From a phage, in sequence record PZ242158.1: DNA of 64,000 nucleotides; one strand, 5' to 3'. Below, one piece after another: positions 62,554 through 62,650 of this stretch; within the stretch, counting starts at the first letter, position 1; each line of letters opens with the position of its first letter. Made by a program: the position numbers and the translations under genes. The notes beneath the pieces are model-generated. The model was not told where the DNA came from and did not search any database. It saw only the letters and a program-made list of their open reading frames with translations.

Positions 62554-62650
62554 GCTAGGTAAGCCCTTTGGCAAGGGCGAGGATTTTTAATCCTGAAAAT
62601 AGACGAGGTAGTCGTTGAATACATAGGTGGTTCGATTCCATCACCTAGCA
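62554..62650 (+). other. atypical tRNA-like element (acceptor and T-arm intact; anticodon arm ambiguous, about 30-nt variable region)
   Basis: Acceptor GCTAGGT/ACCTAGC, D-arm GCCC-TTTGGCAA-GGGC, T-arm GGTGG-TTCGATT-CCATC; anticodon stem AGGAT/ATCCT leaves 5-nt loop. Confidence 0.3.

Follow-up and report, generated by a model that had tools for sequence, protein, structure and literature searches.

A stretch of 64,000 nucleotides (nt) of phage record PZ242158.1, read on one strand and called the window here (coordinates are positions in it), carries a transfer RNA (tRNA)-like element at 62554-62652 on the plus strand, a five-helix cloverleaf inside the tRNA operon of an rV5-like phage. The 950 bases around it are 99.7-99.9% identical to Escherichia phage rV5 and its relatives (genus Vequintavirus, subfamily Vequintavirinae). 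The element is a discrete, single-copy RNA family specific to this phage subfamily, and compensatory changes among its orthologs indicate that its structure is under selection. Judging from the sequences compared, it is probably the gene for a non-decoding but structurally intact L-shaped tRNA mimic with tRNA-Sec-like features, one that would be processed like a tRNA.

Fold and conservation of the element

An acceptor stem, a D arm and the T arm GGTGG-TTCGATT-CCATC, which an earlier note on this DNA had described as canonical, can all be read directly in the sequence (Table 1). The hairpin AGGAT-TTTTA-ATCCT that it placed at the anticodon position is also present, as is the variable region of about 30 nt with a hairpin of its own. 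The first of these hairpins needs a correction, in that the minimum-energy fold extends it to 6 base pairs (bp) with a 3-nt loop; it may alternatively be drawn as 4 bp with the loop UUUUUAA. The tight spacing to flanking tRNAs noted earlier holds downstream, where tRNA-Thr starts 7 nt past the discriminator, and fails upstream, where 98 nt separate the element from tRNA-Ser. Minimum-energy folding alone arrives at the cloverleaf (−34.2 kcal/mol, z = −3.66); of 200 shuffled sequences, none folded equally well. Both this fold and RNAalifold give the D arm as a 6-bp stem (GCCCUU/AAGGGC) with the 4-nt loop UGGC. The CCA end is only partly encoded in the window (A-CC-UUUUU).

No gene finder returned a canonical tRNA with other boundaries. 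ARAGORN calls a tRNA-???(atcc) over 62554-62652, and the Rfam tRNA model (RF00005) scores the element at 35.5 bits (E = 1.6e-5), over its gathering threshold of 29, in an alignment that needs one stem position deleted and 26 nt of the variable region treated as an insertion. The fold on which ARAGORN settles, with a stem AUUUU/AAAAU (62583-87 / 62596-600), an 8-nt loop UAAUCCUG and the anticodon AUCC, was rejected: its stem is broken in the Avunavirus phage Av-05, and the other genera have no U run. The orthologs in Seuna-, Mydo- and Henunavirus are missed by ARAGORN, and those in Seuna- and Mydovirus fall below the Rfam threshold.

BLAST and pattern scans recovered 23 distinct ortholog sequences from Vequintavirus, Avunavirus (Av-05), Seunavirus (PVP-SE1, 4MG, GAP31, KE22, KE23, EspYZU15, FENT2), Mydovirus (BIS47, Mydo, DP, VIK251, Ro1, K54lambda1.1.1), Henunavirus (the Erwinia phages Hena1 and pEp_SNUABM_01) and two unclassified viral contigs (L048 and L050). 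With a covariance model (R1) trained on 19 sequences, each genome yields a single copy, at 92-122 bits, and below it come ordinary class II tRNAs, none above 28 bits. Across 185,579 genomes of bacteria and archaea, a conserved 21-nt pattern was never matched, and pattern scans of IMG/VR and metagenomes gave nothing beyond Vequintavirinae-like contigs; these collection-wide searches used exact patterns, with the covariance model run on fetched loci, and there may be relatives further afield. The phage phi92 is related but belongs to another subfamily, and it shares the RNA ligase and a syntenic gp069-like gene downstream of its tRNA cluster; in that cluster the covariance model found no ortholog, its top match (22 bits) being tRNA-Tyr.

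Every genome examined has one intact copy except V18 and JES2013, two sequenced and viable Vequintaviruses from which the element has been lost by deletion. The V18 deletion fuses tRNA-Tyr, of which the 5' half remains, to the element, of which the 3' part remains (L045 about 655-743); in JES2013, tRNA-Tyr and the element have recombined through their similar T arms, with loss of tRNA-Ser and most of the element (L046 about 637-728). The resulting chimeric tRNA-Tyr/element genes have mismatched acceptor strands, and the V18 annotation is also without tRNA-Pro.

The evidence for selection comes from how the pairs have changed. In a MAFFT alignment of 19 distinct orthologs, 418 of 418 pair cells (the cloverleaf and one tertiary pair) are standard and 9 pairs have double-sided changes, whereas pairing falls to 33-43% in controls whose partners were slid by 1-3 columns. 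Across all 23 orthologs, in an alignment that was fitted to the model, the 21 cloverleaf pairs and the tertiary pair 19:56 are kept in 99.4% of cells, with 11 pairs compensatory and a covariation score of 0.48 against 0.18 when shuffled, a score that draws on about 23 related sequences from one subfamily. The sole unpaired cells belong to pair 31:39 in the three Henunavirus and L050 sequences. Compensatory changes occur in all four stems, and within the anticodon-position stem the pairs 30:39 and 31:38 covary. At the tertiary pair, 14 sequences have G and C while 9 have U and A (TTTGGCAA/TTCGATT versus TTTGTCAA/TTAGATT), and this switching in concert argues that the elbow of the L shape is maintained. 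Cell counts are inflated by relatedness; several pairs nevertheless show three different Watson-Crick types, which requires repeated events. Each ortholog reaches the same cloverleaf by minimum energy alone, with the GAAAAUA linker unpaired in every such fold.

The family also has a core of its own outside the pairing pattern. A8, the UUU that opens the D loop and G26 are invariant, and the first three pairs of the anticodon-position stem are AGG/CCU, or in a few sequences GGG/CCC. The variable-arm hairpin ranges from 13 to 26 nt and varies in sequence, ACGA/UCGU becoming ACGG/CCGU in Av-05. Certain loops are conserved within clades: CAUCCA is kept in Seunavirus, Mydovirus and L048 while its stem changes (AGGUC/GACCU versus AGGCC/GGCCU), and the variable-arm loop GAACUAACAGUA is common to Mydovirus, Henunavirus and L050 on differing stems (alignment columns about 56-70; L033-L038, L050-L052). 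This pattern suggests sequence-specific contacts that may have drifted between genera. As a check for a base-pairing regulator, the linker reverse complement TATGTATTC was counted in the window, with 19 matches at one mismatch or fewer against 18.4 expected and hence no enrichment; a 6-nt match to the start of the downstream open reading frame (ORF) looks like chance. A kissing interaction with the Ile-like tRNA upstream (loop AUC against GAU) was also considered and dropped, as no co-variation was seen by eye, and 4MG and GAP31 share the neighbour while their element loops differ.

A literature search turned up no account of the element, which is absent from the six tRNAs listed both in the genome paper of rV5 (PMC3606486) and in the rV5 reference record. 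Elsewhere it is given as 'tRNA-OTHER, Asp|Gly' (Murica), 'tRNA-Stop(tta)' (JLBYU08), 'tRNA-Lys-TTT' (Gotham and the BASEL phages) or 'tRNA-???(atcc)' (slur12), each of these conflicting labels coming from a gene finder applied to a single sequence, and as tRNA-sup(tca) in Hena1; in Seuna- and Mydovirus it is almost never annotated, or is overlaid by a tiny hypothetical ORF. The gene has thus been annotated in at least five incompatible ways, omitted, or covered by spurious small ORFs, in phages (rV5-like, PVP-SE1-like and related) that are widely isolated and are therapeutic and biocontrol candidates. Treating it as a conserved RNA family and not as a mis-called or dead tRNA would correct tRNA counts and codon-usage arguments for these genomes. 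About 18 GenBank 'Campylobacter phage' records (MG0656xx) are 99.5-99.6% identical to rV5-like E. coli phages here and are unannotated; their host labels look doubtful.

Table 1. Parts of the tRNA-like element and features around it, with positions in the window
Feature	Position	Strand	Remarks
Acceptor stem, 5' strand GCUAGGU (DNA GCTAGGT)	62554-62560	+	7 bp with 62643-62649; 3 of 7 pairs compensatory across orthologs
Positions 8-9 (AA)	62561-62562	+	A8 invariant in alignments; tRNAs normally have U8
D arm GCCC-UUUGGCAA-GGGC	62563-62578	+	3 of 4 stem pairs covary
G26	62579	+	Invariant
Anticodon-position hairpin AGGAU-UUUUA-AUCCU	62580-62594	+	15 nt against 17 in a canonical arm
Variable region	62595-62625	+	31 nt, own hairpin
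5' linker GAAAAUA	62595-62601	+	Single-stranded; 5 of 7 columns invariant (19 sequences), mean column identity 0.88
Variable-arm hairpin G-ACGA-GGUAG-UCGU-U	62602-62616	+	Hairpin in every ortholog
3' linker GAAUACAUA	62617-62625	+	Single-stranded; 8 of 9 columns invariant, mean column identity 0.95
T arm GGUGG-UUCGAUU-CCAUC	62626-62642	+	T loop canonical; pair 51:63 covaries (U-A / C-G)
Acceptor stem, 3' strand ACCUAGC (DNA ACCTAGC)	62643-62649	+	Pairs with 62554-62560
Discriminator A, then CC, then TTTTT	62650; CC 62651-62652	+	Read from sequence
Sigma-70-like promoter of tRNA operon, TTGACA-17-TAATAT	61998-62026	+	Consensus scan; annotated P(tRNA) in rV5 record
tRNA-Arg(UCU)	62085-62159	+	ARAGORN, Rfam
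tRNA-Tyr(GUA)	62164-62250	+	ARAGORN, Rfam
tRNA-Ser(UGA)	62365-62455	+	ARAGORN, Rfam
tRNA-Thr(UGU)	62658-62733	+	ARAGORN, Rfam
CAU tRNA (Met or Ile2)	62735-62809	+	ARAGORN, Rfam
tRNA-Pro(UGG)	62821-62897	+	ARAGORN, Rfam
Rnl1-family RNA ligase	57157-58092	-	PF09511
P-loop kinase	58190-58603	+	BASEL annotation: polynucleotide kinase
Calcineurin-like phosphoesterase (metallophosphoesterase)	58620-59165	+	BASEL annotation: phosphoesterase

The arm at the anticodon position

The arm that should hold the anticodon is 15-16 nt long in all 23 orthologs, against 17 in a canonical tRNA, and takes a different form in different genera. In Vequinta- and Avunavirus, 5 bp close a loop of UUUUA or UUAUA, the minimum-energy form having 6 bp and 3 nt. 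Seunavirus, Mydovirus and L048 have 5 bp with a 6-nt loop C[A/C][U/G]CCA (CNNCCA), and Henunavirus and L050 have 4 bp with a 7-nt loop [C/A]AUCAA[A/G] in which A replaces U33. Taken as anticodons, these loops would give UUU, UAU, none and UCA, depending on the genus. Among the orthologs A, U and C all occur as discriminator, with U73 or C73 in Avunavirus. Seuna-, Mydo- and Henunavirus encode the whole CCA, Vequintavirus encodes part of it and Avunavirus none. Set against a canonical tRNA, the family has the 7-bp acceptor stem and the 5-bp T stem with a GTPsiC-type 7-nt loop; the combination of a 5-bp stem, a 7-nt loop, U33 and a purine at 37 is lacking from all 23 orthologs, and neither anticodon nor discriminator is conserved among them.

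Conservation in a decoding tRNA is highest in the anticodon loop and lowest in the variable region; in the element this order is reversed. Mean column identity over 19 sequences is 0.61 in the anticodon-position loop, 0.51 at the discriminator and 0.40 in the variable hairpin, against 0.94 in the D loop and 0.93 in the T loop, and the A-rich linkers GAAAAUA and GAAUACAUA on either side of the variable hairpin are conserved like the D and T loops. The element thus appears not to be built to decode codons. The earlier note had allowed for a tRNA with a non-standard anticodon loop; a decoding tRNA of this kind we judge unlikely in view of a loop that measures 5, 6 or 7 nt by genus, an arm that is 1-2 nt short and a discriminator that can be A, U or C. 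Vequintavirus variants all keep a loop that can be read as UUUUUAA together with A73, both of which match E. coli tRNA-Lys identity elements.

Possible roles and their alternatives

If the element is a non-decoding tRNA mimic, RNase P and 3' exonucleases would probably free its RNA from the operon transcript and the CCA-adding enzyme would complete the 3' end, as for phage tRNAs. The RNA would then most likely work through its shape and the core particular to the family, with a protein that recognises tRNA architecture as its binding partner in place of the decoding centre. Of the three readings that the earlier note had offered, that of a tRNA-derived regulatory RNA fits best in a weaker form, as a tRNA-derived functional RNA. 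Our leading guess, and a speculative one, is that the RNA titrates or blocks a host enzyme of tRNA-targeting defence or serves the tRNA repair enzymes of the phage.

A cluster of ligase, kinase and phosphoesterase genes (the first called RNA ligase in the BASEL annotation too) lies 3.4-5.4 kb upstream of the element, and this set looks like the heal-and-seal set for tRNA repair of T4. T4 uses these activities to mend tRNA-Lys cut by the anticodon nuclease PrrC. The ligase is shared with Seuna-, Mydo-, Justusliebig-, Phapecoctavirus-like and phi92-like phages. A specific role in counter-defence or as a repair cofactor, in which the element would be a tRNA-shaped decoy lacking a cleavable anticodon loop and bound tightly through its linkers and clade loops, is a tentative proposal that we would put at well under even chances. 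Its target could, speculatively, be an anticodon nuclease, an immune enzyme that modifies acceptor ends, or the Rnl1/kinase/phosphoesterase set of the phage itself. Were the decoy proposal true, no tRNA-mimic RNA inhibitor would have been described from a phage before this one, and the element could serve as a model for rnaC and rnaD of T4, which are still unexplained. Phage tRNAs are known to counter tRNA-cleaving immunity, and a non-decoding tRNA-shaped RNA under strong structural selection, in a phage that has repair enzymes as well, is a candidate for a new phage-host interaction, for which the natural deletion variants V18 and JES2013 and the BASEL isolates are ready test material.

Several observations weigh against a mimic of this kind. 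V18 and JES2013 are viable without the element, which is therefore dispensable on laboratory hosts and accessory like other phage tRNA genes. A decoy must compete with the large host tRNA pool. The phage phi92 has the same ligase and phosphoesterase yet no element, which makes the link to repair weak, and among the genomes compared no partner protein was found that co-varies or is syntenic with the element, which has the spanin and terminase genes close by in Vequintavirus but occupies other places in Seuna- and Mydovirus. The UUUUUAA loop and A73 of Vequintavirus may point to some residual Lys-like decoding or charging in that genus. Expression, processing and binding are, moreover, steps that we infer beyond the structure itself.

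The alternatives are taken here in the order of the weight that we give them. An improbable one is that the element is a processing or stability module, its tRNA shape steering RNase P and 3'-end processing or shielding the polycistronic transcript, with no function as a free RNA. The element does always sit in tRNA clusters, with a tRNA 2-7 nt away to one side or to both, and its canonical acceptor and T arms are the determinants of RNase P. The flanking tRNAs have processing signals of their own, however, and processing leaves unexplained the invariant linkers, the kept anticodon-position hairpin, the CNNCCA loop and the variable-arm loop. Little credence also goes to an odd but working decoder, a nuclease-resistant tRNA-Lys(UUU) in Vequintavirus and an opal (UGA) suppressor in Henunavirus, which would substitute for host tRNAs cut by anticodon nucleases or permit readthrough. 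Such a decoder would agree with the tRNAscan-based annotation as tRNA-Lys-TTT and the tRNA-sup(tca) of Hena1, and with the tRNA repair genes nearby; the loop UUUUUAA is one base from the CUUUUAA of E. coli tRNA-Lys, and it is kept along with A73 in all Vequintavirus variants. Phage tRNAs with altered loops can, besides, evade defences (PMC10264068, PMC11464382). A decoder would, however, keep its anticodon and discriminator, whereas here UAU goes with U73 or C73 in Avunavirus, the loop has 6 nt in Seuna- and Mydovirus, and position 33 is A in Henunavirus. All orthologs have an arm that lacks one base pair, the loop can be closed by U32:A38 and U33:A37 (6 bp and 3 nt at the energy minimum), and A8, the 31-nt variable region and the invariant linkers are unlike any tRNA-Lys.

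Charging by an anticodon-blind synthetase of the SerRS or LeuRS type, with use off the ribosome as an aminoacyl donor or to sequester the synthetase, seems very unlikely. The long variable arm, the tRNA-Sec-like D arm, the intact acceptor and T arms and a CCA encoded in most genera would suit it; the A, U or C discriminator and the variation of pairs 3:70 and 4:69 would not, and C2:G71, A8, U14 and 7-9 unpaired nt on each side of the variable hairpin mismatch the E. coli Ser and Leu identity sets. Nor was an aminoacyl-transferase gene seen in the annotated genome. Equally hard to credit is a decaying pseudogene of a class II or tRNA-Sec-like gene that has lost part of its anticodon loop, even though the anticodon-position loop varies, the CCA is incomplete in Vequintavirus and absent in Avunavirus, and V18 and JES2013 have lost the element. 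With 99-100% of pairs kept across at least five genera, compensation in all four stems and in the tertiary pair, and near-invariant single-stranded linkers, decay is ruled out for practical purposes, and each genome examined has one intact copy, barring the V18 and JES2013 chimeras. The degenerate tRNA proposed in the earlier note is contradicted by the same pairs, 99.4% of whose cells are standard, with 11 of them compensatory including 19:56.

Neighbouring RNAs and comparison with known systems

The element lies on the same strand and in the same operon as six tRNAs, downstream of a promoter-like site (Table 1). Records disagree on one of these, the CAU tRNA, which they label either tRNA-Met or tRNA-Ile2 (reading AUA). 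Between tRNA-Ser and the element, the 98-nt spacer (62456-62553) is predicted to form a multi-branch fold (z = −2.57) with an 8-bp long-range closing stem at about 62459-62466 / 62540-62547. This stem compensates across Vequintavirus variants (GUUGACC/GGUCAAC, AGGAUCA/UGAUCCU, GGAUCAUG/CAUGAUUC) around a nearly invariant interior, and the spacer may be a second unannotated structured RNA.

Other irregular RNAs occur in the clusters of related phages. The tRNA directly upstream of the element in Seuna- and Mydovirus (L005 719-794, L006 718-794, L007 653-726, L009 651-725) has U1 paired with A72 and an anticodon loop that differs by phage: ACGAUUC, ACAGAUCC (8 nt), ACGAUA (6 nt) or CUGCGCA. ARAGORN calls it Ile, Arg or '???', and the records call it Ile, Ser or Arg; it is a second atypical tRNA-like gene. 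In Seunavirus, the element is followed by a conserved, unannotated stretch of about 190 nt (L005 906-1096, L006 906-1095, L007 839-1029, and L016 8500-8693 on the minus strand) with a tRNA-like start, GUGCAUUAGCUCAG, and a hairpin with the 7-nt loop CUGAUCA; a large end-closed fold is predicted for it, with a consensus energy of −58.7 kcal/mol and 4 compensatory pairs in 4 sequences. In phi92, the annotated tRNA-Lys(TTT) at L049 32509-32584, which ARAGORN reports as 'tRNA-??? anticodon (tt)', a sign of an irregular anticodon arm, is another altered Lys-like phage tRNA. In the PVP-SE1 cluster, ARAGORN lists a 'tRNA-??? anticodon (ggca)' (L017 5994-6079) among the 21 tRNAs of the stretch.

Among known RNAs, tRNA-Sec (RF01852) resembles the element in its long variable arm and in a D arm that can be drawn with 6 bp and a 4-nt loop, and the Henunavirus loop CAUCAAA is close to the tRNA-Sec consensus CUUCAAA. 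It is the best Rfam model for Seuna- and Henunavirus orthologs, at 26.5 bits for L005 and 39 bits for Hena1, both under the threshold of 47, and the Hena1 alignment covers the 6-bp/4-nt D arm and the loop CAUCAAA. The 6-bp D stem is predicted in all orthologs, but its two extra U-A pairs never vary, so that covariation cannot probe them. The differences from tRNA-Sec are considerable: the acceptor and T stems are 7/5 and not 8/5 (a 13-bp helix), with non-standard outer pairs in the Rfam alignment; the anticodon stem has 4-5 bp and not 6; the loop UUUUA of the window has no UCA, AUCAA being found only in Henunavirus and L050; and the element has a discriminator other than G and long conserved linkers. 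The allo-tRNAs differ too, in that their 12-bp acceptor/T branch is split 8/4 or 9/3 (PMC5389517) whereas all orthologs of the element have a 7/5 split.

Phage tRNAs with altered anticodon loops that evade tRNA-targeting defences, such as T5 tRNA-Lys against PARIS and a tRNA-Tyr against the retron Eco7 (PMC10264068, PMC11464382, PMC11555353), are also found in tRNA clusters, with the change centred on the anticodon arm and with phage-encoded repair enzymes. Unlike the element, they keep a 7-nt loop and a fixed anticodon and decode. The T4 RNAs rnaC and rnaD (species 1 and 2), which are small stable RNAs other than tRNAs, are likewise encoded within a phage tRNA cluster, and rnaC has a T-arm-like hairpin, CCGGGTTCGAATCCCGG, near its 3' end; at 119 and 139 nt they are longer, and no homology was found by sequence or model, R1 matching only tRNA-Thr and tRNA-Leu in the T4 tRNA region.

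Finally, the tRNA-like modules of noncoding RNAs such as YrlA (Y-RNA-like), tmRNA (transfer-messenger RNA) and mascRNA mimic the elbow of acceptor, T and D arms without a decoding loop and are handled by tRNA enzymes. Their topology is different, as are their partners (Ro60/Rsr, SmpB); no gene for a partner of the Ro60/Rsr or SmpB type was seen in the annotated phage genome, and no Rfam YrlA or tmRNA match falls on the element, the matches to YrlA (25 and 21.4 bits) and to tmRNA_permuted (17.2 bits), all below threshold, being on neighbouring tRNAs. By analogy, the element seems mechanistically most like these tRNA-like modules, and in its setting it appears closest to the stable RNAs of T4.

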